From IMG/VR virus record IMGVR_UViG_3300037222_000116, positions 1 to 64,000 of that record: 64,000 nt of DNA. The stretch is one strand, 5' to 3'. The notes below the pieces were generated by a model, which saw nothing but the letters and a program-made list of their open reading frames with translations, was not told the DNA's origin and searched no databases. Positions 2,716 through 43,840 of this stretch are shown here, in pieces; position 1 is the stretch's first letter, and every line of letters begins with the position of its first letter. Origin of the DNA: a virus. A program made the position numbers and the translations under genes.

Positions 2716-3114
2716 TCAGTGCGCGGTGTCGAGGAGCATCTGCGCGAGCTGGACGGCGGTGCCGTCGTCACCAATCAGCATGAGACGACCACGACTGCCG
2801 TTGGTCAGATGAACGGCGCAGGTGGGGTGCAGGACGTCGTCAGTCACGACGAGATCAAACGCCGCGCCGCCGCTCTTGGCGAGCACCTCGCGGATGCTGT
2901 CCTCGTCACAGACGAGCATGTACGACGTGAAGAGGTCGGCGTCGACGAGTCGCTTGACGACGCGACGCGCACGTTCCTTGTCGAGCATCGCCACGAGCAA
3001 ACGCTTCCCACTCGGTGACGCAACGGCTGCACGCAGCATCCGATGCGCCGCAGCATTTTCGAGCCTTGATCCGCGTACATCGACAGCAACATTGCCCGTG
3101 ATTGGACTGTCCAT
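2716..3114 (-). CDS. hypothetical protein
   Basis: AGGAG upstream of MDSP start; fits operon. Confidence 0.55.
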   Translation of the reverse strand: MDSPITGNVAVDVRGSRLENAAAHRMLRAAVASPSGKRLLVAMLDKERARRVVKRLVDADLFTSYMLVCDEDSIREVLAKSGGAAFDLVVTDDVLHPTCAVHLTNGSRGRLMLIGDDGTAVQLAQMLLDTAH

Positions 3115-3118
3115 GGGA

Positions 3119-3436
3119 CTACTCCTTCTCCTCCCTCGCCTTGAACACTGCAACGGGCCTGCCGTTGTCGAGGTGCTGCACGAGGGTCACGAGGCTGTTG
3201 GTGTTGTCGGCGAGCGCCGCCTGATATTCTTTGATCACCGCCTTGTAGTCCTCAATTCGCGCATCGGCTGCGGCCTTGGTCGCCGTGGCAGTCGCGTCGT
3301 TGAGCTGATTCTGCCGCTTGTAGAGCAGGTACACGGCGTAGCCCATGGCGAGCAGGATGACACCGACGATGCCTTGCTGAAGGACAATCGAGCCAGCGGA
3401 CTCCCAGATGGACGGCGGCACTGCGATCGGAGGCAT
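3119..3436 (-). CDS. holin-like membrane protein
   Basis: single TM (QQGIVGVILLAMGYAVYLLYK) followed by coiled coil; near hydrolases. Confidence 0.5.
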   Translation of the reverse strand: MPPIAVPPSIWESAGSIVLQQGIVGVILLAMGYAVYLLYKRQNQLNDATATATKAAADARIEDYKAVIKEYQAALADNTNSLVTLVQHLDNGRPVAVFKAREEKE

Positions 3437-3445
3437 GCGAAGCTC

Positions 3446-3973
3446 CTAGAGCCGCGTCGGCGACGAGGAGGACACAGACGCGCGGGTGAACGCATAGGCG
3501 AGCACACCGCCTCCCAGCGCGATGAAGAGCGCGGCTGCCACACCGAGGCGTGGTGGCGGGGGCGGCGGCGTGTAAGGCTCGGGAGGAGGCGGGGGTGGCG
3601 GCGTCGTCGAGACATTGTTGTCGCCATCGAAGACGAGGTTGGTCCTCGACGTCCAGAATTCAGTTCCGGGGGAAGGCCCTGCCGCTGGCACGAGCCGAAA
3701 GTTCGCAACCGTCGGCGGGGTACGCAGGATGCCGCTGCGCAGCCGTGTCGGCTGCTGTGCGACGTTGGGACGCAAGAACTTGAAGACGCGTGTTCCAGCC
3801 GGAATGAAGACACGCACCCACTCAATCGTGCGTCCAGTCTTGGGGTCGCGGGACGGACCTCCCGTCACGGTTTCGCCGAGGTCCAACGTTACGCCGCCAT
3901 CGACCACCAGCGCAGCAGCGTCGTAGGAAGGACGCGTGAGCAAAGACGTCCGAACGCGTGTTTGAGCAAGCAT
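3446..3973 (-). CDS. membrane-anchored protein with poly-Pro stalk
   Basis: beta-rich domain, PPPPPPPEPYTPPPPPP, C-terminal TM. Confidence 0.65.
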   Translation of the reverse strand: MLAQTRVRTSLLTRPSYDAAALVVDGGVTLDLGETVTGGPSRDPKTGRTIEWVRVFIPAGTRVFKFLRPNVAQQPTRLRSGILRTPPTVANFRLVPAAGPSPGTEFWTSRTNLVFDGDNNVSTTPPPPPPPEPYTPPPPPPRLGVAAALFIALGGGVLAYAFTRASVSSSSPTRL

Positions 3974-4721: not shown

Positions 4722-5774
4722 TCAGCTTCCTTCGTCAGCGTCTTCGAGTATATCGCCCTGCTGCTGGACAATCGAGGACTCGATCGGCGTCAGGCCCGTC
4801 TCGGCGTCGACGGGAGCCTTGATGACGCGCGCCTTGCGCTTCTTGCGGCGCTTCTTGGGAGGAGCCATGAGCATGCGCGGTTCGTCGTCGTAGCCGTCGT
4901 CGTCGCCGTAGCCTGCGTCGCGTTCGCGCGGATCGAACATCTCGCGGCGGGATGATTGCTCGCGCTGATCCTTGCGACCGAAGTACCACGTCGCCACACC
5001 CACGCCGACAGTCAATGCCGTCGTCACGCCGCCGCCGATCCAGAGCCACTTGGACTTTGAATCTTCGACGTCTCCGCTCGGTTCCCCGGCGTCGTTCAAG
5101 CCTCGTGACGAGAAAAAATCATCGAGGATCTCGTCGAGGGCATTGGCCTCGGCGAAGACGACCTTGGGGGCCTGCTGGTCGAGCGGCACGTCGAGCATAC
5201 GGAGCTTCTCGCCCTCGGAGATCGGCCATGCCGTGCCACCACAGTAGTAGATCAGCCTGAGCAGGCTCAGGTTGTGCGGCGAGGGGCTCGTCTCCCGCGT
5301 CCCGGCGCGCGCGAACGGAGCGAGCTGGTCGAGCAAGAACTTGAACTGGTCGCGGGCCTTGACGCCGAAGGGCTTGTTGTCGCTCGTGACGCCGAGCGGC
5401 ACAAACGCGTTCTCACGCCACAGCTCTCTGAGCACGTTGTCGGTGACGTGGGCTCGCTTGTCGACGCCCGCGATGTACGCGCGCCCGTGCATGATGGCTT
5501 CGGGCGTGAAGTTGACCTCGTCGTCCCCCGGCGAGCAGCCACCGAACATCCCGAGCGACCTCGGGGCGTCCTCGGGGACCATGATGCCTGCCGCCTTCGC
5601 GGCGTCTCGAATGATCGCCTCCAGCTCACTCTGCTTCATGCGCAGGAGGCGATAGCTATCGAGCACGACGCAAGGCACACCACCGTTGGCCGCGAGGTTG
5701 ACGATGCGTCGGTACGCGTGGTTCACCAACTCACGACCGCGAGCGATGAACGGGAGGACGTATCCAGCTTGCAT
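4722..5774 (-). CDS. membrane protein, putative virion component
   Basis: 350 aa; TM WLWIGGGVTTALTVGVGVATWYFG; basic KKRRKKRK patch. Confidence 0.7.
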   Translation of the reverse strand: MQAGYVLPFIARGRELVNHAYRRIVNLAANGGVPCVVLDSYRLLRMKQSELEAIIRDAAKAAGIMVPEDAPRSLGMFGGCSPGDDEVNFTPEAIMHGRAYIAGVDKRAHVTDNVLRELWRENAFVPLGVTSDNKPFGVKARDQFKFLLDQLAPFARAGTRETSPSPHNLSLLRLIYYCGGTAWPISEGEKLRMLDVPLDQQAPKVVFAEANALDEILDDFFSSRGLNDAGEPSGDVEDSKSKWLWIGGGVTTALTVGVGVATWYFGRKDQREQSSRREMFDPRERDAGYGDDDGYDDEPRMLMAPPKKRRKKRKARVIKAPVDAETGLTPIESSIVQQQGDILEDADEGS

Positions 5775-5932: not shown

Positions 5933-6481
5933 ATGCGCCTTTACATCTTGCTCTTCGCTTCACTCATCGGCTGCACCGGAGACATCACGAGCACCGGCAC
6001 GCCGACGTGCGTCTGCGAGCCAACGGCATGCCCGACCGTCGATGGCGGCGTGGTAACAGCGCCGGATCTCGTTTCTGGAGCGGACGCGCTACCCGTTACT
6101 TCGATCGACATGACGCCGGATGGCTCAAGCAATCCAACTCCTCCTGACATGACACCACCGAACCTGCTAACGCTGCGCGCTGCCTGCGCGACAACCGGAG
6201 GGCAATACAACTTCGGTGTTTGCTGGCGCGAAGGGAACGTCGGCGAAGCGTGTGACGATGTGTGTTCTTCCTACGGAGGGCTCGATGCGCTGCACAGTGC
6301 CCACGATGGTTGTGGCATTGCTACGATGGCGTTCGCGGCGACAGCAACAACATCAAGCAACGGCACGCCATTCGAGGTCATCACCAACGGCAAATGCACA
6401 ACGGCAGACGGCAACCAGTTGCCGCATGGTACTTTGCTTCCACCAACGAACGGACGCTTTGTGTGTGGCTGCCGCGAGTAG
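5933..6481 (+). CDS. Cys-rich lipoprotein
   Basis: signal peptide with lipobox LIGC; AGGAGG RBS; many Cys; DMTP repeats. Confidence 0.75.
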   Translation: MRLYILLFASLIGCTGDITSTGTPTCVCEPTACPTVDGGVVTAPDLVSGADALPVTSIDMTPDGSSNPTPPDMTPPNLLTLRAACATTGGQYNFGVCWREGNVGEACDDVCSSYGGLDALHSAHDGCGIATMAFAATATTSSNGTPFEVITNGKCTTADGNQLPHGTLLPPTNGRFVCGCRE

Positions 6482-6485
6482 GAAA

Positions 6486-7232
6486 TCAGACGATGACGCG
6501 ATCGAGCGGATCGGCGGCATTCACACCCCAGATCACGGTGTAGCGTGTACGCCCGGCGACAGCGTGTGCGAGGATTTTGATGATGTAGAAGTTCGTGCCG
6601 CCGATCGCTTGTGTGAGACGCCCGAGCTTGATGTTGATGGCGGCAACGTCTTCGACGCCGTAGGCGAGCACTTCCGCAGGGCGATTGACGGAAGTTTGCA
6701 AAGACGCCTGATTCAAGAACTGGTTGATCTCCGTCCGCTGGTCGATCGGAAGGTTCTGCTCTTCGACAGACAGGTAAGGCAAGAAGAGCCCCGAGGTTGT
6801 GTCGAAGAACCACAGCTCGTCGAACTGAAGAACGCGAATGTTCTTCAGCGCCGTGCCTGACGCGCTTCCAGTCGGAAGGTGGGCAATCAGCACCGACAGA
6901 CGCGAGCGGCCATTGCTGTCGTAGGCGGCAGCGTCGACAATCTTGTAGTCACGAAACATCGTGACGCCGTCGCCGCCGAACGGCAATGCCGTGTCGTTGG
7001 CGAAGCGGTCGTTCAGCTCATTGCCGTCCGAGCGCCCGCCGTCGAGATTGCTCACGAGCCCACCGGCTGTGTTGATCTGTCCGATCTGGAAGTAGCGCCG
7101 AGCTGCCCCCGGAGGCAACGGAGCCCCATTCAACTCGTCAACGTACTCGGCGGCGGGCGTCGTGAACCCGCTGACGAGATCGGCTGTGTTGGCTTGCTCT
7201 TCGTAGGTGAGCTGGATGAGTGCCTGTGCCAT
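6486..7232 (-). CDS. putative virion structural protein
   Basis: 248 aa beta-rich ORF downstream of capsid candidates. Confidence 0.6.
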   Translation of the reverse strand: MAQALIQLTYEEQANTADLVSGFTTPAAEYVDELNGAPLPPGAARRYFQIGQINTAGGLVSNLDGGRSDGNELNDRFANDTALPFGGDGVTMFRDYKIVDAAAYDSNGRSRLSVLIAHLPTGSASGTALKNIRVLQFDELWFFDTTSGLFLPYLSVEEQNLPIDQRTEINQFLNQASLQTSVNRPAEVLAYGVEDVAAINIKLGRLTQAIGGTNFYIIKILAHAVAGRTRYTVIWGVNAADPLDRVIV

Positions 7233-7245
7233 CGGGAATCCTCGC

Positions 7246-7785
7246 TTAGCTCTTCAGCGAGGCAAGCAGCCCCGCGAGCCTGTCAAATCCTGCATCGAGC
7301 GCATCAACAATCCTGCTCGTCGCAGGCTCACCATCTGCTGTCGCTTCCAGCAGCGCTGTCACCCACACAGACACCAAAATCTGATACCCGGAAGGAATGA
7401 CCGCCAACGTTGACGAATCACCACGGAAGTTGGCGTACATGCGTTTGCCCGGTGGGACCGGCAGCGTGACGACGACGTCGAGCGGCAGCATGGTTGCGTT
7501 GCCGGGCTGCGCCTGCGCCAGCTTGCCCTGATCGAAGCCGATGAACACCAGCGGGATCACCTGCCCACCCGCGACAGGCGGCAACCGCACGTTGAACTTG
7601 GTGCTGGTCTGGATGATCGTCGCGACGAACGACACGCTTCGCGCCTGCGTCTGCTCGGGCGTCAGGATCTCCTGCGGAGCAGGCGTGCCGTCGGCAAAGT
7701 ACTGGCCCGCCAACGGCAGATCAAAGAAGAACGATCGCGCCTGCGCGAGATAAGACCCTTGGGGTCGTCGAAGAGGGTTCGCCAT
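7246..7785 (-). CDS. putative virion structural protein (minor capsid/vertex candidate)
   Basis: 179 aa with alternating hydrophobic beta pattern; position in structural operon. Confidence 0.55.
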   Translation of the reverse strand: MANPLRRPQGSYLAQARSFFFDLPLAGQYFADGTPAPQEILTPEQTQARSVSFVATIIQTSTKFNVRLPPVAGGQVIPLVFIGFDQGKLAQAQPGNATMLPLDVVVTLPVPPGKRMYANFRGDSSTLAVIPSGYQILVSVWVTALLEATADGEPATSRIVDALDAGFDRLAGLLASLKS

Positions 7786-7819
7786 CAGCGTCTCCTGACT
7801 ACACTACTACGAAGGACGC

Positions 7820-8077
7820 TTATCGCCTACGACGGCGACGGCGCGCACCACTCATGCCGTGCGCTGCACGCCGCGCAGCGTCTTCGGCTGCCTTTGCATG
7901 AGCAGCATTGCAGTCACGCATGGCCTCTGCGTGACCTTCCAACCACGCTTTGTGCTCCACGTCCTCCATGTTGTCTTCGCAATAATGCTGCAAATCTTGC
8001 TCTTGTTCATCGAGCAAGACTTCACATTCGCGGCGTCCGAGTTGCCCGCGAATATCTCCTCGCGCGATCCGGCTCAT
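7820..8077 (-). CDS. small acidic protein with GMSGA-R7 tail
   Basis: GQLG site, acidic core, ends GMSGARRRRRRR. Confidence 0.6.
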   Translation of the reverse strand: MSRIARGDIRGQLGRRECEVLLDEQEQDLQHYCEDNMEDVEHKAWLEGHAEAMRDCNAAHAKAAEDAARRAAHGMSGARRRRRRR

Positions 8078-8082
8078 TGGGG

Positions 8083-8616
8083 CTACCGCTCCTCGGGGTA
8101 CATCGACTCGGGGGCCTCGGCCAGCTCTTCCGTGTAGCCGTGGACGGCGACCGTGATGTTGTAGGGAGCGCCGATCGCGCCCTCCTGCACCTGCACGCGG
8201 AACTGCACGCCGCCACCGAGAGCGCGAAGGATCAGCTCGCCGGGGTGGAAGATCCACTCGCGCCGTTCCTTGTCGAGAAGACCATCACACGCGATCGGGT
8301 CTTTGGTCAGGTCTTCGTTGCGAACCAGATCCGTGACGAGCAGCGAGACGTTGGCGTAGTCGGAATCGACTTCGTCACCGCCGCCGACGCGTGTGATCGA
8401 GACTTTGATGCGCTTGACGATGAAGGGGCGTGACAGGGCATTGAGGAACGGATCGAGCGGGAACGGAGCCGTGACGCCTGCACCAACGGCTCCCGAATTC
8501 TCCTGCGTCCCGTCGCCGCTCGTGAAGAGCTGCGAGCCGAATGCGAAGGGGTAGCGGAAGAGGCGCTTGCCAGTGGGGACGGCGGCGTCGGAGGGCTTGC
8601 GAACGGGCTTTGCCAT
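8083..8616 (-). CDS. candidate small single jelly-roll capsid protein (177 aa)
   Basis: GAGGAG RBS; beta-strand pattern (PFIVKRIKVSI, VQFRVQVQ, YNITVAVHGY); adjacent to 239-aa candidate; fold is inference. Confidence 0.5.
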   Translation of the reverse strand: MAKPVRKPSDAAVPTGKRLFRYPFAFGSQLFTSGDGTQENSGAVGAGVTAPFPLDPFLNALSRPFIVKRIKVSITRVGGGDEVDSDYANVSLLVTDLVRNEDLTKDPIACDGLLDKERREWIFHPGELILRALGGGVQFRVQVQEGAIGAPYNITVAVHGYTEELAEAPESMYPEER

Positions 8617-8684
8617 GGGCGTCTTGCTCCTCGCTCGACGACGGTCGGTTCCGCCCGAGCGGTGATGCACTACGAAGAACTACA

Positions 8685-8712
8685 GGGGAGCGCGGCACGC
8701 GCCGCGCTCCCC
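8685..8712 (-). terminator. hairpin/terminator after capsid candidate
   Basis: GGGGAGCGCGGC-4nt-GCCGCGCTCCCC perfect 12-bp stem. Confidence 0.6.
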
Positions 8713-8764
8713 GAACTTGCACCAGCACCAGCAACCACGCGCACTCGTAAGTACGCGGAATTGC

Positions 8765-9484
8765 TTAGGTGACCGGAACCTTGAGAAGCCCCTCGAACTG
8801 GACCTGCGGCTCGACGGTCGTGTTGTCGGCGTCGTTGACCTGCTGCGCCTGCGTGAGCTGGAGCGCCACGACGGGCTGGCAGCCGACCTTGAACGACACG
8901 TTCGGGCGCAGGTGGACGGGGATCACGTACTGGAAGCCGTCGCGCGGGCTCGGGATGCCGTTGTTGGCGAGCGTCTCGGCGACGTCGTTGGTGACGACGT
9001 TGATGCCGCCCGCCGACGGGTAGTCCTCGAAGCGGCCCTGCGAGCGGGTCTTGTTGTTGACCTTGAAGTCGAGCATGCACTTGCGGTCCAGCTCGAACCA
9101 CATGCGGCGGTTCGGCGTGTCGGCGTTGACCGAGTCCTCCCACGTCGAGTTGGAGGGCTGCGTCTCGGGGTCGTTGGAGCCCACGACGTCGAGGATCTTC
9201 GTCCGCATGCTGAACACGAAGATTTCCCAGTCGATCGGGAGGCCGTTGACGCCGTCGCGCGGCATGTTGGTGTCGACGTCGGTCAGCGTGCGGACGCCGC
9301 CGCTGATCTGCTGGCCGATCTGGCCGACGAAGAAGTCACGGCGCGACGTGTCGCCATCGGAGTAGCTGATGGTCGACCACACGCGATCCCACTTCCACTC
9401 GCCGAACTTCAGCTCGCCGGGGATGCCGTTGACGCGCACCGTGAGGGTGCCGATGTTCTGCGAATCCGCGAATCCGTTTCCCAT
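8765..9484 (-). CDS. candidate major capsid protein, single jelly-roll type (239 aa)
   Basis: strong GC3 codon bias, GGAG RBS, flanking hairpins, beta-rich with FF..IG..DTNM..LP..F pattern and terminal V-F-G strand; fold is inference. Confidence 0.55.
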   Translation of the reverse strand: MGNGFADSQNIGTLTVRVNGIPGELKFGEWKWDRVWSTISYSDGDTSRRDFFVGQIGQQISGGVRTLTDVDTNMPRDGVNGLPIDWEIFVFSMRTKILDVVGSNDPETQPSNSTWEDSVNADTPNRRMWFELDRKCMLDFKVNNKTRSQGRFEDYPSAGGINVVTNDVAETLANNGIPSPRDGFQYVIPVHLRPNVSFKVGCQPVVALQLTQAQQVNDADNTTVEPQVQFEGLLKVPVT

Positions 9485-9524
9485 GGTTCTTCACTCCGTT
9501 TTGTACTGCTCGGTTTGGTCCGTA

Positions 9525-9555
9525 GAGGAGGCGGGGGTTTTACGCCCGCCTCCTC
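9525..9555. other. stem-loop upstream of capsid candidate
   Basis: GAGGAGGCGGG / CCCGCCTCCTC 11-bp inverted repeat. Confidence 0.55.
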
Positions 9556-9580
9556 GTGATGGTTCTTGTCGGCCTCGCGC

Positions 9581-10171
9581 CTACGACTGGTAGGGCGAGA
9601 GGCTCATGGCGGGCTCCTGCGCGCCCGCCATCTCGTCCTGATAGAGCCCGAGGCTCACGGGCGTGCCGCCGCCCATGATCTGAAGGCCGCTCGGCATGCC
9701 GAGCGCGCCCGCCACGAGGGCCTGCGCGACGGCGTCCGTGTCCGCGGACTCGCCGAGGATCTGGAGGTCCGCGCCCGCCATCTCGGCGGCGTACTCACCG
9801 AGCGCGCCGTTCATCTCGGGCTCGATGTAGTGGCCGCGGAGCAGCTCGGTGATGGCGATGACCGCCGTCAGGCCGAGGCCGAGGAATCCGGCGCTGCGGG
9901 TCTTGCGGAAGAACAGCGCGATGGTCGACGGGATACCACCCGCCGCCAGCGCGATGAACCCCGCGTACTTCGCGATGCGCGGGCTGGAGTGCCGCATCGC
10001 CTTGGCGGCGAGGAGGCCACCGCCCGCGAGGCCCGCGCCGAGGAGCGCGCCCCACGCGGGGGACACCTCGCCGTAGTAGCCGTATCCGTCGAAGAGGCCG
10101 CCCAGCTCGTCGCTGGCGACCTCGGCGGGCTCACCGGCCGAGAACTGGTCGAACTTCATCGAACGGGTCAT
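9581..10171 (-). CDS. major membrane protein candidate with multiple LG sites
   Basis: GAAGGAG RBS; 2-3 hydrophobic segments; DELGG, MNGALG, QILG, GALG; in-frame GTG at 10342 possible. Confidence 0.7.
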   Translation of the reverse strand: MTRSMKFDQFSAGEPAEVASDELGGLFDGYGYYGEVSPAWGALLGAGLAGGGLLAAKAMRHSSPRIAKYAGFIALAAGGIPSTIALFFRKTRSAGFLGLGLTAVIAITELLRGHYIEPEMNGALGEYAAEMAGADLQILGESADTDAVAQALVAGALGMPSGLQIMGGGTPVSLGLYQDEMAGAQEPAMSLSPYQS

Positions 10172-10354
10172 GTGGACTCCTTCAATTTCGTTGTCGGGTT
10201 GGTGCTCGTCGTCGCCCTCGTTGGCTCCGTCGACACCGTCCCGTGGTTGCCCTTGTGGACCGTCCCACTGCGCACACCGAATGAACTCCCCGACGTCAGG
10301 GACCTTCACCTTGTCCGTGCGTGTGCAGCGTCTTCGCTTCACGTTCTTGTGCCT

Positions 10355-10621
10355 CTACCTGCACTTCTTGAAGGCCCCGGTGGTCTTGTTGCGGCAGCGC
10401 TTGCCGCCCTTGCGGGTCCACGTCGCCACGACGCGCCCGGTGCCACCGCTGACGCGAGACTTGGCGCGCTTGCGGCACTGCCCCTTGCGGGGTCCGCTCT
10501 TCACCTTGCCGTAGGGGCACTTCCGACGGCCTCTGGACCCGTCAATGGTGAACGTGCCGCTCTCAGGAGAGCCGCCGTAGCCATCGTCACTGCCCAGCGT
10601 GAACACGCGCTTGCCTCGCAT
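10355..10621 (-). CDS. basic Cys-containing DNA-condensing protein candidate
   Basis: KCPYGKVKSGPRKGQCRK; highly Lys/Arg-rich. Confidence 0.7.
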   Translation of the reverse strand: MRGKRVFTLGSDDGYGGSPESGTFTIDGSRGRRKCPYGKVKSGPRKGQCRKRAKSRVSGGTGRVVATWTRKGGKRCRNKTTGAFKKCR

Positions 10622-10630
10622 GACGCGCCG

Positions 10631-10786
10631 TTACTTCCGGCGACGCTTGTGCTTGAGGCACTGGCCCTTGCGACGACCGACCTTGACCTTGCCGAAGCGG
10701 CACTTCTTGGTCGACTTGCGCCGACGCGCCTTGCCCAGCTCGTCGCTGTCGTTGACGTACATGCTGCGAAGTCCCGTGGTCGTCAT
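10631..10786 (-). CDS. protamine-like protein with acidic leader (51 aa)
   Basis: GAGGAG RBS; NDSDELG then KARRRK..KCRFGKVKVGRRKGQC. Confidence 0.7.
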   Translation of the reverse strand: MTTTGLRSMYVNDSDELGKARRRKSTKKCRFGKVKVGRRKGQCLKHKRRRK

Positions 10787-10823
10787 CTGCGTGCTCCTCT
10801 TGTGCTGCTGGTTGATGTCCCGT

Positions 10824-12611
10824 TCACCACGGGAGTCCGTGAACCGCTGCAACGGTCGGATCGAAATCCGCCGTGGAAACCGAATCCGTATCGTCGTCGA
10901 AGTCGCCTTGATCCTCGTCGGGCGCGAAGCCGTCATCACCCGATTCCGGCAATGGAGCGACCGAAGCGGACGGAGCGGACGGCGAAGGCCCACCACCCGA
11001 TCCACTGCCACCACCTGACTGCTGCGGCGCAGGGACATTCTGGTTCTGGGACAGCGGCGTCGCTGTCGGAGCAGTCCCGGCTGCGGGTCCACTCGCGCCG
11101 GGCGTAGCGGTGTTGGGAGGCACCGAGGACCACGGTGCTCCAGTCGGCGTCGTCGACATCACCGACGGACCCGAGCCGGTGTAGGCGCTCGCCGTGGGCG
11201 TGCTGCTCGCGCTCGGCTGGCATTGGTTGCCGTTGACGAGCATCGACCCCGGAGGACAAATCGGAGTGGCTGTATTGTCGATGGGATCGGCGTGCTGAAT
11301 GCACTGATTGCCGACCAATCGAAACCCCGGAGGGCACGTCGCTGGAGTGCGCGCGAGTGAATTCGCCGTTGCACCCGGTCCCGGTGGGGGAGCGCTGATG
11401 ATTCTCGCGGGCATTGCAGCTTGCGGCGGTGCGAACGGCGTTGCCGTCGCAACCGACTGCTGTTGCGCTGCCGCTGCCGCTGCCGCTGCTGCGGCCTGCT
11501 GTTGCGCGAGCGTCTGCCCGCCACCGCCGCCATGCGAGCGACCGTGACGACCATGGGCTGCGTGACCATGCGTGCTGCGCGCATGCCCGCCGTGCCCACC
11601 GTGCGCGCGACTGCTGCGTGATCGATGTGCTGCGCCGAGCGCGTCGTTCATGTGCGCCTGCTGGAAGTAGCTCGGTCCCAGCACGCGCTGCATCATCGGC
11701 AGCATGGCAATGACAGGAGGAGGCGTGCCGACCGTCGACTTGTCGGAGCCGACTGTCGATTCAATGGTCGTTCCGCCACCGCCAGAACCACTGCCGCTCG
11801 TGTAGCCGCGCGCCTGTGCTTCGGCGACCGCTTGCGCGTGAGCTTGCGCGCGAGACATGCCGTGGTGATGCCCGCGCGCAGCGTGTGCGCCGCGTGCGTA
11901 GCCGTGACCACCACCCTGACGGACGCGTGTGGACGTGCGGGAGGCCCCGCGACGCGCCGCGCCGAGCCCCCCTTCTTCAAAAGGGAGGGGCGAGCCTCCG
12001 TTGTATGGATCGAGTGCCTGCACGGGCGGCTCTTCGCCACCTTCAGACGAGAGCGAGATCCGCTCCATCATCTGCGGGAAGCCGAAGGGCGGCGGGATGA
12101 CGACCGTCAGCCCGCCGAACTTGGCGACGACCGGACGGCCCTGAAGCATGATCTGCGCGGCGCGGCAGATGGCTCCTGCGACCGAGCCACCACCGGGGCA
12201 CTTGCCCTGAATGGAGCCCACGTCGCCGAGCCCGCCACTGAGCGCGCCGTTCATCGCCGCCGTCTGCACGGCTTGTGCAAATGCACCAAGCGCGCTCTGC
12301 TGCTGCGGCGAGAGCTGACGGGAGCCCGGATCGACCCCGATCACCTGCGGAGGAGGCAATCCCGGCGCACCGGAGCCATCTCCCGGCCCGAGCGTCTCAT
12401 CCATCGGGTCTGTTCCCGGTGGAGGAGCACCCGTAAACCGCTGGTGCTGGTAGGGATGATCGTTGAATCCCTGTGCGGGGTGCGCGATGGCATTGATGAG
12501 AGCGCCACTTTGCACCGCCGCAATGCCGCGCTGTCCGAACGGGATGACAACTCCCGTGCGGAGCACCGCGTTGGGATCGACCGCGAGGCGGGCCATTCCG
12601 TGTTGCGCCAT
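10824..12611 (-). CDS. low-complexity Gly/Ala/His/Pro-rich putative virion precursor protein
   Basis: 595 aa; several ALG/GLG sites, His-rich tracts, two CPPG..GNQC repeats, acidic C-terminus. Confidence 0.7.
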   Translation of the reverse strand: MAQHGMARLAVDPNAVLRTGVVIPFGQRGIAAVQSGALINAIAHPAQGFNDHPYQHQRFTGAPPPGTDPMDETLGPGDGSGAPGLPPPQVIGVDPGSRQLSPQQQSALGAFAQAVQTAAMNGALSGGLGDVGSIQGKCPGGGSVAGAICRAAQIMLQGRPVVAKFGGLTVVIPPPFGFPQMMERISLSSEGGEEPPVQALDPYNGGSPLPFEEGGLGAARRGASRTSTRVRQGGGHGYARGAHAARGHHHGMSRAQAHAQAVAEAQARGYTSGSGSGGGGTTIESTVGSDKSTVGTPPPVIAMLPMMQRVLGPSYFQQAHMNDALGAAHRSRSSRAHGGHGGHARSTHGHAAHGRHGRSHGGGGGQTLAQQQAAAAAAAAAAQQQSVATATPFAPPQAAMPARIISAPPPGPGATANSLARTPATCPPGFRLVGNQCIQHADPIDNTATPICPPGSMLVNGNQCQPSASSTPTASAYTGSGPSVMSTTPTGAPWSSVPPNTATPGASGPAAGTAPTATPLSQNQNVPAPQQSGGGSGSGGGPSPSAPSASVAPLPESGDDGFAPDEDQGDFDDDTDSVSTADFDPTVAAVHGLPW

Positions 12612-17507: not shown

Positions 17508-18074
17508 CTACCAACCCATGTACGTCTGCGGCTGAATGATGCGCGGGCCGTAGACGATCTGGTGTCCGTCGAATTCGAGTCCTGCTCTCGGGGCGTGCGG
17601 CGGCAGCGTGAAGGACTTGCTGAAGCCGATCGTCCAGTCGATCGGAAGCCAGCGATCCGGGTTCATCTTCGGGTAGGCGATCAGCGGGAAGATGTGCGCG
17701 TAGGGTCCATTGGCTTCGTTCTTTGTCACGGCTCCCTTGACGCCGAAACCATTTCCCATGGCGAGGGTAGCAATGAGTGTAAAGCCGTCGTCGCAGTCAC
17801 CACCCCGAAATTGCAACGTCCTGCGGGCACTCTGGTAGGTGTCATACCCGGCGATGTCACCCGTGTACCGGATGTTCTTCGCCATGAAGAGGTTGATCGC
17901 TTCCAGCTCACACATCGAATCCCGCCACGGACAACCGTGCGTGATCGCCAACGCGAGCTGGCGACTGATCGCGGGGTCACGGATGGACTCGTAGACCATC
18001 TTGCGGATCAGCTTGATGCGATCCTCGATGGACTTGGGCTGCCACTCCTGCATACGCATGTTGCCGACGGGCAT
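17508..18074 (-). CDS. transglutaminase-like cysteine protease
   Basis: RTLQFRGGDCDD (Cys), YAHIFP (His), WLPIDW (Asp) in canonical order. Confidence 0.8.
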   Translation of the reverse strand: MPVGNMRMQEWQPKSIEDRIKLIRKMVYESIRDPAISRQLALAITHGCPWRDSMCELEAINLFMAKNIRYTGDIAGYDTYQSARRTLQFRGGDCDDGFTLIATLAMGNGFGVKGAVTKNEANGPYAHIFPLIAYPKMNPDRWLPIDWTIGFSKSFTLPPHAPRAGLEFDGHQIVYGPRIIQPQTYMGW

Positions 18075-39156: not shown

Positions 39157-39761
39157 GCGCTGCCGTCCTGTTCGATGCGATTGCCCGTGGCGTTGAAGCC
39201 GCTCTCGACAACAAGACGACGCCCTACAAGGTCGGCGAGAAGCGTCCCTACAGCGAAGAGCGAGCGGACTTGTCTTCAAAGTGCCAGCGGCTCGTTGCGA
39301 TGGCGATTGGCGAGATGAATGCTGCCGCCAAGCAGTCCGATCGCGCCGCCAAGCAAGCCGGGCGTAAGTTCGTCAAGCCTGCGGGCGACCGTCGTCCTAC
39401 ACCCCCGCCGCGCTTCACCGAGCCGCGCGTCGCAGCGAGGCGTCCTGCGCGCAGCATCCCGGTGGTTGTCGAGGAGCAGATCGAGGTCGAAGACGAGGGA
39501 ACCGAGGCGCAACGCGTCTCGCCGTCGTTTCCCGCCAAGACGGCGGCGGCTGGTCAGCATGTGATGACCGGCGCAGGCGTGGAGCTGGAGGCCCTTGGTA
39601 GGGTGTCAGCCAAGAAGCCGGGGTCCTTTCTCTTCAAGCGCGGCGACGGCGCGATTCTCGCCATTCTCGCCGACACCATGATGGTCGAATGGCCGCAAGG
39701 CAACGGCGAAGTCGTCGAAGACGATGAAGAGCAGGCACCCCCGAACGGAGACGCCTCGTGA
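39153..39761 (+). CDS. hypothetical protein
   Basis: coupled ORF, 202 aa. Confidence 0.6.
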   Translation: MSAAVLFDAIARGVEAALDNKTTPYKVGEKRPYSEERADLSSKCQRLVAMAIGEMNAAAKQSDRAAKQAGRKFVKPAGDRRPTPPPRFTEPRVAARRPARSIPVVVEEQIEVEDEGTEAQRVSPSFPAKTAAAGQHVMTGAGVELEALGRVSAKKPGSFLFKRGDGAILAILADTMMVEWPQGNGEVVEDDEEQAPPNGDAS

Positions 39762-40882
39762 GCAATTCGATTACTCTTGTCGACGTCAATGATCCCAACT
39801 TCGTCGACTTCACGATCCCGTCGCCACCGCAGACCGACGTCGAGGCGTGTTTGCCCCTCGACGATGCCATCGACATCGCAGCGACGCATCTCGGTTTGCC
39901 GCTGCTCGGTGGCCCTTCCGGGCGCGGTTGGAGCTTCTACAGCGTCGCCCAGCTCTGCCCGCACCTGTTCAAGCAGACCTACGAACGCGGCGACGGAACC
40001 GAGCGCGGCAATCCCGCTGAGCCGCTTCAGATCGGCGGTATGTACCACGCGCTGCAAGCCTACTTCTATGCAGGTGGGCTCGGCGAGACATGGGCGCAGG
40101 ACCGTGGCCTCTGTCGAAGTGAATTCGCGGACGCCAAGACCGCCACCGGGCGCAAGCGCCAGCCGAAGCCCGGCGACGCCCAGCTCGTCAAAATCCCGCC
40201 GACAGCAGCCGATGATTTGCTCGCTCTCCTCAAGCGCATGGCCGAGGGCAAAGAAGACAAGCTGCTCGGTGGCGATGGCGTCAACGAGCCCAAGCGTCCG
40301 AGCATCAACTTCATTCTGATTGCTGAAAAAGCCTTCGATGCCCATACAGCCGAATGGGGAAGTCGCGAGGACATGACGCCGTTGGCGATCGAGTGGCTCG
40401 CGCGGCATCCGCTGACCGGCTACACCTGCCGCTACGACGCCATCATGCGCCTCGGGCCGAACGATCCGCTCGTCATCGCGCATTCCTACGACAAAGAGCC
40501 GACTCTCTTCAAAGAGGGCGGCGTGGTCGTCATGGAGCGCAAGACGGCTGCGTGGCTCGGTGAGGCAGCGATCGACGGCTGGACGCTCGATGGAGAAATC
40601 CTCGGCGAGATCATGTGCTGGAAGGCGAGCGGCTGTGAAAAGAAGTTCGGGCCGCTCGCGGGCGTGATTATTGACATCGTCAGCAAAGGCAAGAAGACCG
40701 ACTTTCACCGGATGGAAATCCCGGTTGCTCCCGGCAACGTCAAGCTGCACGAGAAGTGGCTGCGCTGGACTGACGGTCAAGTCCAGCTTTGGCGCGCGAC
40801 GGGAGCTTTCCCCAAGCACTTCAACTCGTGCTGGGGTAGGTACGGTCGCTGCCCCGAGTGGCACGCCTGCGTCAGTGGGTAA
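39758..40882 (+). CDS. PD-(D/E)XK exonuclease (RecB/Cas4-like)
   Basis: CP..F, G..YH, E...YD...ERKT; C-terminal C..C..C with N-terminal Cys (Fe-S staple pattern). Confidence 0.8.
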   Translation: MSNSITLVDVNDPNFVDFTIPSPPQTDVEACLPLDDAIDIAATHLGLPLLGGPSGRGWSFYSVAQLCPHLFKQTYERGDGTERGNPAEPLQIGGMYHALQAYFYAGGLGETWAQDRGLCRSEFADAKTATGRKRQPKPGDAQLVKIPPTAADDLLALLKRMAEGKEDKLLGGDGVNEPKRPSINFILIAEKAFDAHTAEWGSREDMTPLAIEWLARHPLTGYTCRYDAIMRLGPNDPLVIAHSYDKEPTLFKEGGVVVMERKTAAWLGEAAIDGWTLDGEILGEIMCWKASGCEKKFGPLAGVIIDIVSKGKKTDFHRMEIPVAPGNVKLHEKWLRWTDGQVQLWRATGAFPKHFNSCWGRYGRCPEWHACVSG

Positions 40883-41130
40883 GGGCAAGGGCAAGTATGC
40901 CCTGAAGCGAGGGCACAAGAGTTATCACCTTCCCGGTAAGGGAAGAGCAGGAAAGGGATTACGCATGTCGCGCGATGGCAAGCTCGAATTTGTCTGGGAC
41001 ATCGAGCGGCGTGAACGGCGCACGCGCTTGTTCTTCGCTGCCTGCTTCTTCGTGCTCATGCTCACGATCGCTGGCGGAATGCTCTACGTCGCGCTCACGG
41101 ATACGGACAACACACCTGCGGAGAAGACCA

Positions 41131-41979
41131 ATGCCTCGGATTGATATGAATGCCAAGCCCCACATCAAGACGAGCATGATCTTCGGCGGCTCGGGAGCAG
41201 GAAAGACGCACCTGTGCTGCACGTACCCGAAGCCCGCGTGGATCGGCAGCACGCGCGAAGAGGGATTCGTCACGATTCAGACGATGGATCGGGCGAACCT
41301 CTATGACCCCAAAGTGCCAGTGCAAATCTTCGGCGTCTCCTCGATGCTGGAGATGATGCGGGACTTCAATCAGTTCATCATCCCGCAGATCCGTGCGGGC
41401 AAGATCGAGACGGTCTGCGTTGAGTTGAGCTACTACACCAACGACGTCATCGACGCCGCGCCCGAAGAGGCGAACGGCTGGGTCAAGTACATGGCCCTGA
41501 TGAAGCACATCAACTTCATTGACAAGGTCATCAAGGCATTCCCGAATTGTCGGCTTGTCTACAATGCCCTGTCCGCGCCCGAGAAAGAGGTCGACAAGGC
41601 CCCGACCGGCATTCTCACGGCGGGCAAGGCGATTTCCAAGACCATTCCCGCGGCGACGTCGCTCTTCGGCTATCTGCGCACCGAAGACAAAGGCAACAGC
41701 GTCGTCGACCGCGTGCTTCACCTGACGACCTACGGCCCGTATATGTGCCGTCACAGGTTCGGCAACAAGCTCCCCCCGCTCGTGCGCAACCCGAGCTATC
41801 GCAAGCTGGAGCAGTTGTTGTCGGGCGAAATGACGGTCGATCACGAAGGCTATGTTGTCGCGCCGGGAAGTGTGGTAGCAATGCCACCGGCAAAGACGAT
41901 CGTGGCTGCTGCTCCCGCCAAGCTGCCCGACATCAACCTGCTCGACCCCGAGCCCCTTCCGCCGCTCGAATTGGATTAG
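41131..41979 (+). CDS. AAA_24 / Sak4-like ATPase
   Basis: Walker A GGSGAGKT; located between exonuclease and SSB-like genes. Confidence 0.75.
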   Translation: MPRIDMNAKPHIKTSMIFGGSGAGKTHLCCTYPKPAWIGSTREEGFVTIQTMDRANLYDPKVPVQIFGVSSMLEMMRDFNQFIIPQIRAGKIETVCVELSYYTNDVIDAAPEEANGWVKYMALMKHINFIDKVIKAFPNCRLVYNALSAPEKEVDKAPTGILTAGKAISKTIPAATSLFGYLRTEDKGNSVVDRVLHLTTYGPYMCRHRFGNKLPPLVRNPSYRKLEQLLSGEMTVDHEGYVVAPGSVVAMPPAKTIVAAAPAKLPDINLLDPEPLPPLELD

Positions 41980-42061: not shown

Positions 42062-43027
42062 ATGGCCGACAAGGACAAGCCTTCGCAGGACTTCGTGATG
42101 GACTTCGTGACGCCCGAGTACATGGCGTCGACGAAGACGGAAGACGGACGCGGCGGCGGTTTCGCGCGCGTCCCGGTCTGTGACTGCGCGCGCTTCAAGA
42201 TCGTCGACGCCGCGATCCAGCCCAAGGAAGGCGACAAGCCCCACAACATGCTCGCGCTGACGCTCGCGGTGCTCGCGCACCCCGACGCGAGTGCGGTCGG
42301 CATGAACACGAAGGTTCTCCTCGCGGGCTCCAAGGAAAGCCCCAAGTTCATGCGGGGGCGTCTCGCGCACTACATCAGCACGCTCAAGATCCCGCCCGGT
42401 CGCATCGCGCGGTCGGCGTGGATCGGTCGCGAGTTCGAGGGCTCCGTCGTCTGGGAGAAGGCCAAGCCCACGATGAACTCGCAGGGCGAGACGGTCATCT
42501 ACGTCAACGACCGCGTGTGCAACGAGCGCGCGTTCGGTGCCGAGGTCCCCAAGGGCTTCAACGCGGAGAAGGCGAGCGCCGAGGCCAAGAAGTACCTCGA
42601 TGCCAAGGACGGCGGCTCGCCGGGCGCGAACGTCGAGGGCGGCGGTGCGGCTCCGTGGGCTCCCGAGGGCAGCGCGCCGACCGAAGGCGCGACGGCGACG
42701 GTCGACGGCGCGGGTGCTGCGACCGGCACGACGGGCTTCAAGCCCGAGAGCGAGATCAACGACGACACGGTCTTCGCGTACCGTGCGGCGATCAAGCTCG
42801 ACATGAAGTCCAAGGAGACGGCGCGCGAGGCCCTCATCGGCATCGGCTTCGACCCGGACGGCCCGGTGGACAGCAGCAAGCTCAAGGGGACGATCAAGGC
42901 GAAGTACGACGCCAAGTTCCCCCCGCAGGCCGACGAGGACGAGCTGCCCGCGCTTGGCGGCGCGAACGGCGCGGCGACGGCTGCCAAGACCGGCACGCGC
43001 ACCAAGCCCGCGGGCGCGACCGCGTAG
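42062..43027 (+). CDS. ssDNA-binding protein candidate
   Basis: strong RBS and codon bias; OB-like N-terminal pattern; flexible tail; gene context. Confidence 0.55.
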   Translation: MADKDKPSQDFVMDFVTPEYMASTKTEDGRGGGFARVPVCDCARFKIVDAAIQPKEGDKPHNMLALTLAVLAHPDASAVGMNTKVLLAGSKESPKFMRGRLAHYISTLKIPPGRIARSAWIGREFEGSVVWEKAKPTMNSQGETVIYVNDRVCNERAFGAEVPKGFNAEKASAEAKKYLDAKDGGSPGANVEGGGAAPWAPEGSAPTEGATATVDGAGAATGTTGFKPESEINDDTVFAYRAAIKLDMKSKETAREALIGIGFDPDGPVDSSKLKGTIKAKYDAKFPPQADEDELPALGGANGAATAAKTGTRTKPAGATA

Positions 43028-43585: not shown

Positions 43586-43840
43586 ATGGCGAGTTGCAAA
43601 GTGTGTCTCGAACACCTGCGCAAAGATGGCACCTGCAAATGGGCTTGTGATCCAAAGCTCGCCAATCCATTCAAGCGCACACGCCCTGTCGGCGTCAAAG
43701 AAGTGCCTGCTGACCAGCGCGGCGCAACGTTCTCGGTGGCAGAGCGACAGAACATGAGCAACGCGGTCGCCAAGGTCGACAAGACCTACGCGAGCTGGAG
43801 CAATGAGATTCTTGCCCGGAAGAACCACGGCTCACGGTGA
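43586..43840 (+). CDS. small Cys-containing protein
   Basis: CKVC...CKWAC; coupled to polymerase. Confidence 0.5.
   Translation: MASCKVCLEHLRKDGTCKWACDPKLANPFKRTRPVGVKEVPADQRGATFSVAERQNMSNAVAKVDKTYASWSNEILARKNHGSR

Follow-up and report, generated by a model that had tools for sequence, protein, structure and literature searches.

A Putative Capsid Module with Two Single Jelly-Roll Proteins in the 87.9-kb Genome of a Possibly Tailless Virus

Overview of the Locus

The stretch of DNA analyzed here (the window) comprises positions 1 to 64,000 of IMG/VR virus record IMGVR_UViG_3300037222_000116. This report deals with a cluster of minus-strand genes near its start, in which two adjacent genes coding for single jelly-roll proteins of 239 and 177 aa are proposed to specify the shell of a tailless virus. 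A first-pass annotation had singled out four open reading frames (ORFs) of this cluster, and all four were recovered on the minus strand as genes for proteins of 239, 177, 179 and 248 aa (Table 1).

The window is the first part of a single contig of 87,902 bp, the ends of which share an exact direct repeat of 122 bp (positions 1–122 of the window and 87781–87902 of the genome). The record is classed in IMG/VR as a virus with direct terminal repeats (DTR) and has a CheckV completeness of 100. The 87.9-kb contig is a complete genome, either circular or terminally redundant. Gene calling yielded 83 genes in the window and 113 in the whole genome.

The 239-aa Protein

The 239-aa gene has a G+C content at third codon positions (GC3) of 0.96, the highest among the real genes, and the highest per-codon bias score among genes of at least 150 aa (computed by hand from the gene-call scores). 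A GGAG motif is located 9 nt upstream of its ATG at 9484, and GAGGAG is found 10 nt upstream of the ATG of the 177-aa gene at 8616. Two strong hairpins flank the 239-aa gene, with the 177-aa gene sitting behind the second of them (8685–8712). The strong expression signals reported in the first-pass annotation were therefore confirmed.

An AlphaFold2 (AF2) model of the 239-aa protein, built from a 56-row alignment, has a predicted local distance difference test score (pLDDT) of 86.3 and a predicted template modeling score (pTM) of 0.80, and folds into a jelly-roll of eight strands that also has a helix and two long loops. In the second look with VIA, the model best matched chain 6oj0_A of the virus SPV1 (Z 8.6; root-mean-square deviation (rmsd) 3.2; 135 residues aligned), followed by PHM (Z 6.5), HHIV-2 and HCIV-1 (6.4), SH1 (6.3) and P23-77 (6.0). 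The exhaustive VIA search likewise placed SPV1 first (6oj0_T, Z 7.9). The top Foldseek match was again 6oj0_A (E-value, 3.1 × 10−3; probability, 0.99), the best rows being capsid chains of SPV1, Faustovirus, SH1 and HHIV-2, and a BFVD model named SPV1 VP4 matched as well (E-value, 5.2 × 10−3).

The protein has 12 close homologs (57–76% identity), which are found on contigs of 74–95 kb. A profile search of 1.84 billion representatives gathered 67 clusters at 50% identity, nearly all of them with members of 190–270 aa. No match in Pfam or PHROGs, no signal peptide and no named family were found for the 239-aa protein, and searches of viral_contigs for relatives, with profile A1 and with P0019, returned none. 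When compared with all PDB chain sequences, the profiles of the 239-aa and 177-aa families gave chance matches only, and none of the SH1, HHIV-2 and P23-77 chains appeared at E-values of up to 10. The sequences of the two families do not resemble each other (hhalign probability, 0.4%), and neither family has a paralog elsewhere in this genome. Judging from its modeled fold, the 239-aa protein is best read as the probable major capsid protein.

The 177-aa Protein

The longest frame of the second gene (195 aa) reaches position 8670 and has a GC3 of 0.81; the 177-aa form is the recorded one (P0082). Its AF2 model (pLDDT, 90.0; pTM, 0.81) is a plain jelly-roll. The VIA list for this model is flat, with HHIV-2 chain 6h82_b at the top (Z 8.2), followed by EhV-201 (8.1), the C-terminal barrel of PRD1 P3 (8.0; rmsd 3.6; 118 residues), PBCV-1 chain 8h2i_bC (7.8), SPV1 chain 6oj0_Z (7.7) and HCIV-1 (7.6); the barrels of giant-virus capsid or penton chains score 7.6–8.1. 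Chain 6h82_b spans residues 39–173, and a published account of HHIV-2 describes the first 40 residues of the penton protein VP9 as disordered (PMC6414509). Based on this residue range, 6h82_b is probably VP9.

Eight close homologs of the 177-aa protein were identified, and the profile search extended the family to at least 189 relatives, mostly of 163–178 aa, on contigs of up to 275 kb. No match was found in Pfam or PHROGs, and this family, too, has no name. The predicted complex of the 239-aa and 177-aa proteins had a score of 0.00, under the mark, and speaks neither for nor against binding. The structure predictions agree with the first-pass suggestion of two single jelly-rolls, the best matches of both models being capsid proteins of membrane-containing icosahedral viruses.

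Search for Tailed-Phage and Packaging Genes

The Pfam scans covered 60 ORFs and the PHROGs scans 30 ORFs of the whole genome, which together include nearly all ORFs of at least 200 aa. Families of terminase, portal, HK97 capsid, tail or tape-measure proteins were not detected in these scans. In addition, six-frame family searches were performed on five records, namely this genome and four relatives of 91–221 kb. Terminase_6N, TerL_ATPase and Terminase_6C were matched in none of the five records, although their controls gave matches, and the same empty result was obtained for Phage_capsid and Phage_portal, the only two searched among the many capsid and portal families, and for FtsK_SpoIIIE and Pox_A32. 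DUF87 had no match in this complete genome. Capsid_NCLDV was also absent from the five records, a negative that says little because this family was detected in no control genome. An Atlas pointer to the double jelly-roll domains PM2 P2_N/P2_C scored only 0.76.

The first-pass annotation had recognized no terminase, portal, HK97 capsid or tail gene and no FtsK/A32-type ATPase in 64 kb, and had cautioned that head and tail genes could lie outside the window. Because the contig is complete, as judged from the 122-bp terminal repeat and the CheckV value of 100, this caveat can be answered: the remaining 24 kb hold no such genes, and inspection of all 87,902 bp revealed neither a packaging ATPase nor a terminase.

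In a six-frame scan for Walker A motifs, no ORF with such a motif was left unassigned, and the D5-like helicase and the Sak4-like ATPase were the two credible cases in the genome. The motif in PolA is most likely a chance occurrence; the SNF2 helicase was recognized by Pfam and PHROGs. No ORF of the whole genome combines a Walker A motif with the nuclease make-up of a large terminase, and the unannotated ORFs of more than 400 aa encode low-complexity, coiled-coil or repeat proteins, which fit a terminase or a portal poorly.

Several candidates were considered and rejected. ORFs 40975–41979 and 42062–43027 were examined as a packaging ATPase/double jelly-roll pair; the first is Sak4-like (PHROG 124), and the second has no Pfam, PHROGs or PDB match and a long low-complexity tail, and is taken, by its sequence and position, for an SSB-like protein. 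The strongly codon-biased 429-aa ORF at 62076–63365 (+) was considered as a hidden HK97 capsid protein and is placed by Atlas with DUF932-like clusters (0.97). Finally, the Walker-like motif at 85.6 kb of the genome lies in a frame without coding bias.

Relatives and Host

In the close relatives, represented by loci L003 and L005, the genes for the low-complexity protein, the membrane protein and the 239-aa, 177-aa and 179-aa proteins follow in the same order as here. A homolog of the 253-aa membrane protein lies directly upstream of the 239-aa homolog in all seven related loci (L003, L005 and L007–L011). About 1.5 kb is inserted between the homologs of the capsid gene and the 177-aa gene in one close relative (L003:7004-8549).

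The distant relatives are IMG/VR records of 196, 221, 95 and 91 kb (CheckV 90, 100, 59 and 68, respectively), in which the membrane protein is again encoded directly upstream of the capsid gene, and a transglutaminase-like enzyme 3.5–5 kb upstream of it. The distance between the 239-aa and 177-aa homologs grows to 7.3 kb in the 95-kb record (L009/G003), to about 14 kb in the 221-kb record (G002) and to 1.6 kb in locus L011. The 221-kb and 95-kb records have in common with this genome both jelly-roll genes, the membrane protein and the transglutaminase-like enzyme, together with a small protein with two transmembrane (TM) segments, a phosphatase, SNF2, a nuclease, Sak4, PolA and an integrase.

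A HerA/DUF87 ATPase is encoded by three of the four distant relatives (G001, G002 and G004), and was found neither in this complete genome nor in the 59%-complete record. In G002, this protein (L021:9878-11599, minus strand; 573 aa; Pfam E-value, 4.8 × 10−12) has winged-helix-like C-terminal repeats and adjoins a second paralog of the 177-aa family (L021:11665-12195, minus strand), between the genes for PolA and ribonucleotide reductase. The short loci obtained from G001 and G004 (L029 and L031) showed no such neighbor. The HerA/DUF87 protein could be the packaging ATPase of the larger branch, and the lineage does not uniformly lack a candidate motor, since three of the four distant relatives carry this ATPase.

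One branch of the lineage sits inside the chromosome of a metagenome-assembled genome (MAG): a member of the 177-aa family was found in a contig of 4.74 Mb, which by its title is a Gemmatimonadota MAG chromosome (G005, locus L011). The same locus holds the membrane protein and a 239-aa homolog; the latter shares 71–72% identity with its counterparts in the large IMG/VR records. Three paralogs of the 239-aa family (~227–249 aa each) lie in tandem elsewhere on this chromosome, at a second locus (L034/L036, G005:C1:1187199-1189336). Among 401 sampled Gemmatimonadota genomes, the 239-aa family occurs in two, the second of which (L037, G364:C36) again has three tandem copies; within the short flanks examined, no 177-aa homolog was found near these tandem paralogs. 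These findings point to Gemmatimonadota as the host of the large branch, by way of integration or of an assembly chimera.

Neighboring Genes of the Module

The features of the module and its surroundings are listed in Table 1. The membrane protein and basic proteins that the first-pass annotation had placed next to the jelly-roll genes are present there. Position 10171, at which the region described in that annotation ended, is an internal Met codon of the 253-aa membrane protein and not its end.

Table 1. Features of the putative capsid module and its surroundings (window coordinates).
Feature	Position	Strand	Basis or remark
350-aa downstream protein of the module; hydrophobic segment, basic tail	4722..5774	-	Homolog at the same position in L005
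248-aa variable protein	6486..7232	-	Homolog in none of seven related loci, including close relatives
179-aa protein	7246..7785	-	Same position in close relatives L003 and L005 only
177-aa single jelly-roll, proposed penton (or second capsid protein)	8083..8616	-	AF2 fold and structural matches
12-bp GC-rich hairpin with T-rich tail, terminator-like	8685..8712	-	-30.0 kcal/mol, z -4.19; between the jelly-roll genes
239-aa single jelly-roll, proposed major capsid protein	8765..9484	-	AF2 fold, SPV1 match, GC3 0.96
11-bp hairpin separating the 239-aa gene from the membrane-protein gene	9525..9555	-	-25.2 kcal/mol, z -4.96
253-aa protein with two hydrophobic segments	9581..10342	-	Hydropathy; directly upstream of the 239-aa gene
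88-aa protein, strongly basic (net +22); candidate for condensing the DNA in a core	10355..10621	-	Charge count; putative role
73-aa strongly basic protein (net +19)	10631..10852	-	Charge count; putative role
595-aa low-complexity protein heading the module	10824..12611	-	A homolog precedes the membrane protein in L003, L005 and L011
188-aa transglutaminase-like (papain-fold) enzyme	17508..18074	-	Pfam Transglut_core, E-value 2.7 × 10−4, just under the curated cut-off

The 179-aa and 248-aa genes have GC3 values of 0.75–0.76, and neither product has a Pfam, PHROGs or PDB sequence match. The variability of the 248-aa protein would suit a part involved in host recognition. No credible Pfam match was found for the 595-aa protein. 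Homologs of the transglutaminase-like enzyme lie 3.5–6 kb upstream of the capsid-gene homolog in L003, L005 and L007–L010, and are also present in G002 and G003.

One metatranscriptome, from the probable source sample, contained three short RNA contigs covering positions 8676–8741, 9761–9956 and 10023–10173, the last two on the gene for the 253-aa membrane protein. None of its contigs fell on the 239-aa gene, a hole that proves nothing, as such contigs cannot rank genes.

Two plus-strand ORFs are found amid these minus-strand genes. The first (5933–6481) encodes a Cys-rich protein of 182 aa with a lipoprotein-type signal peptide and a lipobox-like LIGC motif, and could be a moron or an exclusion lipoprotein. 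The second (7859–8137) spans much of the 298-nt gap in the minus-strand genes at 7786–8082 and encodes a product of 92 aa with two hydrophobic segments (GC3 0.80); a second gene call did not retain it.

Other Genome Content

Based on the Pfam and PHROGs matches, the replication genes of this virus include those for a D5-like primase-helicase, a fusion of uracil-DNA glycosylase (UDG) and PolA, an SNF2 helicase and a Sak4-like ATPase. The scans also recognized ThyX, NUDIX, two dual-specificity phosphatases, methyltransferases and a GNAT, and further matches identified a peptidoglycan (PG)-binding protein, a ParB-HTH protein, a topoisomerase-like protein, a tyrosine integrase and the transglutaminase-like enzyme. 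In a crude hydropathy census, at least one hydrophobic 19-mer was found in the products of 16 of the 83 window genes and 20 of the 113 genes of the genome, in line with the first-pass count of more than 10 TM-anchored ORFs in the window.

The UDG-PolA fusion is a single plus-strand frame of 999 aa (43837–46836) comprising a uracil-DNA glycosylase domain, a 3'-5' exonuclease and a family A DNA polymerase. The fusion hinges on the choice of start codon, because a second gene call starts PolA at 44068, past the start of the Pfam UDG match; the PolA homologs of the relatives have 1,027–1,237 aa. A protein of 374 aa encoded at 39758–40882 (+), adjoining the Sak4-like ATPase, has a C-terminal four-Cys cluster and is kept in the 221-kb and 95-kb relatives. 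By position and motif, we take it to resemble a Cas4/RecB-type nuclease.

Beyond 62 kb, the DUF932-like gene is accompanied by those for the topoisomerase-like protein (PHROG 6247; E-value, 1.3 × 10−92), the ParB-HTH protein and the tyrosine integrase. These three plus-strand genes occupy 1835–2740, 2761–3819 and 10990–11916 of locus L001. This set suggests a plasmid-like maintenance and establishment block and a temperate or episomal lifestyle. Further along, at 77603–81244 of the genome (L001:15603-19244, minus strand), a protein of 1,213 aa is encoded that consists of about 20 Gly/Ser/Thr-rich repeats and a distinct C-terminal domain. No match to it was found in Pfam or PHROGs.

Near-identical DNA was found in peat metagenomes, which are possible sources of the virus. 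In a permafrost metagenome from another study, the fraction of sampled words that recurred was 0.48, and 22 of 25 aligned contigs were at least 99% identical; aquatic and lake runs yielded only short pieces of 90–99% identity, from which no habitat is drawn.

Interpretation and Alternative Explanations

Taken together, the two modeled folds, the conserved gene order and the gene content moderately favor a tailless, icosahedral virus with a jelly-roll shell and probably a membrane, in which the 239-aa protein would be the major capsid protein and the 177-aa protein the penton. The best reading of the relatives is a previously undescribed lineage of large non-tailed double-stranded DNA (dsDNA) viruses with genomes or contigs of about 74 to more than 220 kb. 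The first-pass annotation had envisaged either an unusually large relative of Halopanivirales or a new lineage carrying a tailed-phage-type replication module; the new, large and non-tailed lineage is favored here, and the Halopanivirales relative is not.

From gene content and by analogy, the following picture of the assembly route, with its oligomers, membrane and core, may be drawn. The 239-aa protein would form six-fold capsomers, as SPV1 VP4 does, and the 177-aa protein would serve as a second, less abundant shell protein, most likely as the five-fold penton. The conserved two-segment membrane protein would connect the shell with a lipid layer inside it, and the protamine-like basic proteins would condense the DNA into a nucleoprotein core. 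Such a core is proposed because several protamine-like proteins are encoded here while a packaging ATPase is missing. Membrane and shell may assemble around the core, as in SPV1, and the transglutaminase-like (papain-fold) enzyme is a possible maturation protease with putative cleavage activity.

The more far-reaching proposal, a deep (family- to kingdom-level) lineage of bacterial viruses that have an SPV1-like shell over a membrane and, in this branch, a protamine core without a packaging motor, is put forward only tentatively. Given its sister branches with a HerA-type ATPase or three tandem capsid paralogs, the lineage could show stages of jelly-roll capsid evolution.

A number of points weigh against the account of a tailless virus. 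The account is built from gene content and two modeled folds, and its oligomers, membrane and particles are predicted ones. Z-scores of 8–8.6 are, according to the search tool, often reached by models that have no clear match and may reflect no more than a common arrangement, none of at least 500 Foldseek PDB matches of the 239-aa model reached an E-value of 0.001 or less, and the 177-aa model matches cellular jelly-rolls (GOLD domain, Z 7.8; PHM, Z 7.2) nearly as well as capsid proteins. As only two of the 113 proteins were folded, an HK97 fold or a double jelly-roll could hide in unannotated ORFs of 250–370 aa. The automatic labels of the related Atlas clusters read Uroviricota, and the 1,213-aa repeat protein is a fiber that would suit a tail as well as a vertex spike. 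With the HerA/DUF87 ATPase present in most of the distant relatives, assembly without a motor may hold for this branch only, or not at all. Finally, the host is deduced from one MAG, with two of 401 genomes of the phylum positive, and that of the 88-kb virus itself stays putative.

Among the alternatives, a Helvetiavirae-like design survives best and is nevertheless unlikely. According to it, the 239-aa and 177-aa proteins would be co-equal capsid proteins that build pseudo-hexameric capsomers on an inner membrane, and the virus would be an unusually large relative of that group. In its favor, the pair of single jelly-roll genes, unrelated and differing in size, is adjacent in this genome as well as in L003 and L005, and the three tandem 239-aa paralogs of some relatives indicate that shells of several capsid proteins occur in the lineage. 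Both models also match the SH1, HHIV-2, HCIV-1 and P23-77 chains (Z 6.0–6.4 for the 239-aa protein and 7.2–8.2 for the 177-aa protein), a range that cellular jelly-rolls reach as well. On the other hand, kinship with Halopanivirales, as proposed in the first-pass annotation, was not borne out, as neither sequence nor profile similarity to the PDB chains of SH1, HHIV-2 and P23-77 was detected, SPV1 is clearly the better match of the 239-aa protein (Z 8.6 versus 6.0–6.4), and the conserved ATPase of the order is missing from this genome.

The same annotation had likened the pair to two capsid proteins of unequal size. Both are indeed single jelly-rolls, but their co-equal partnership is doubtful. 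A major capsid protein and a penton are favored instead because the codon bias of the two genes is very unequal (GC3 0.96 versus 0.81), because a terminator-like hairpin separates them, because they are only loosely linked in distant relatives, being apart in L009/G003, G002 and L011, and because the top match of the 177-aa model is a probable penton. It is thus more likely that the 177-aa protein is a penton than a co-equal second capsid protein.

Slightly less probable still is a very divergent tailed phage, the jelly-rolls of which would be decoration or cement proteins or parts of a fiber or baseplate, with HK97, portal and terminase proteins too divergent for Pfam and PHROGs. Weaker structural matches to the KHP40 cement protein (Z 6.0–6.3), the HFTV1 turret (5.3–6.8) and the tail fiber of phage 7-7-1 (6.3–6.9) are consistent with such a phage, as are the long repeat fiber, the tailed-phage-type replication module, the PG-binding protein and the integrase, besides the Uroviricota labels and the small number of folded proteins. 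It is opposed by the absence of an ORF of terminase make-up, by the low-complexity, coiled-coil or repeat character of the unannotated ORFs of more than 400 aa, and by the lack of five hallmark families in all five records, including the 221-kb record rated complete. Moreover, the most codon-biased structural gene encodes a jelly-roll and not a candidate of 300–450 aa.

That the jelly-rolls are no capsid proteins at all, but secreted, membrane-associated or chaperone-like beta-sandwiches of a plasmid-like or integrative element or of a virus with another, unknown capsid type, is improbable: the fold is common (GOLD, nucleoplasmin, PHM and Ena pilins score Z 5–7.8) and ParB-HTH, DUF932-like, topoisomerase-like and integrase genes are present, but the record has a viral classification and terminal repeats, capsid proteins top every match list, and the 239-aa family is conserved (57–76% identity), codon-biased, free of signal peptide and family annotation, and always travels with the membrane protein and the papain-fold enzyme in large phage-like genomes.

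Large prokaryotic dsDNA viruses are generally assumed to be tailed, and the genomes of the known prokaryotic viruses with jelly-roll capsids are small, measuring roughly 10–30 kb in those other than SPV1. If the account of a tailless virus with a jelly-roll shell is true, it would break the former assumption, with genomes of 88–220 kb, a jelly-roll shell and no terminase. The widespread lineage of soil, peat and freshwater would then be a bacterial counterpart of the archaeal portogloboviruses, and would bear on the origin of one-, two- or fused-barrel jelly-roll capsids and on the encapsidation of large genomes. Its true numbers would be hidden, because automatic pipelines label such genomes as tailed phages. 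A literature search, the scope of which did not extend to subscription journals and supplementary files, yielded no publication that describes bacterial viruses of large size with capsids of single jelly-rolls.

Comparison with Known Systems

The shell of SPV1 (Portogloboviridae) has T=43 geometry, with hexameric capsomers formed by the single jelly-roll protein VP4 and pentamers formed by the single jelly-roll protein VP10. The 239-aa model is closest to the 178-residue chain type of 6oj0, with a Z-score about 2 above that of the next entry, and 6oj0_Z, which represents the second chain type of this entry, is matched by the 177-aa model (Z 7.7). Like SPV1, the genome described here is devoid of a packaging ATPase and codes for several small, strongly basic proteins. 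No sequence similarity to SPV1 exists, and the genome is 88 kb long with a terminal repeat and codes for its own PolA, D5-like primase-helicase, SNF2 and ThyX, in contrast to SPV1, which has a circular genome of ~20 kb, no polymerases and hosts among the Sulfolobales (PMC8459092). The present host is probably bacterial and not a hyperthermophilic archaeon, a relative being found in a bacterial MAG chromosome.

In Halopanivirales/Helvetiavirae (SH1, HHIV-2, HCIV-1 and P23-77), the capsid proteins are vertical single jelly-rolls encoded by adjacent genes and used together in the capsomers, and they sit with a jelly-roll penton on an inner membrane. Two adjacent single jelly-roll genes are present in this genome. 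However, the adjacency is lost in the distant relatives G002, G003 and L011, the second stacked barrel of Helvetiavirae VP4 is absent, and the two proteins are likely to be a major capsid protein and a penton rather than a heterodimer of two capsid proteins. The genome is also several times larger and has no packaging ATPase, and a published overview describes a packaging ATPase of the FtsK/HerA superfamily as common to most Varidnaviria (PMC8328091).

Tectiviruses and other viruses with double jelly-roll proteins (PRD1, PR772, PBCV-1 and Faustovirus) are tailless and contain a membrane, and the 177-aa model aligns with their barrels. Unlike in these viruses, neither a double jelly-roll protein nor an FtsK/A32-type ATPase was recognized here. 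The virus is a member of none of the three groups, Portogloboviridae, Helvetiavirae and tectiviruses: sequence homology is missing, its genome is at least four times larger, it encodes tailed-phage-type replication proteins of its own, and its host is probably bacterial. It would nevertheless work like SPV1 and, more loosely, like the others.

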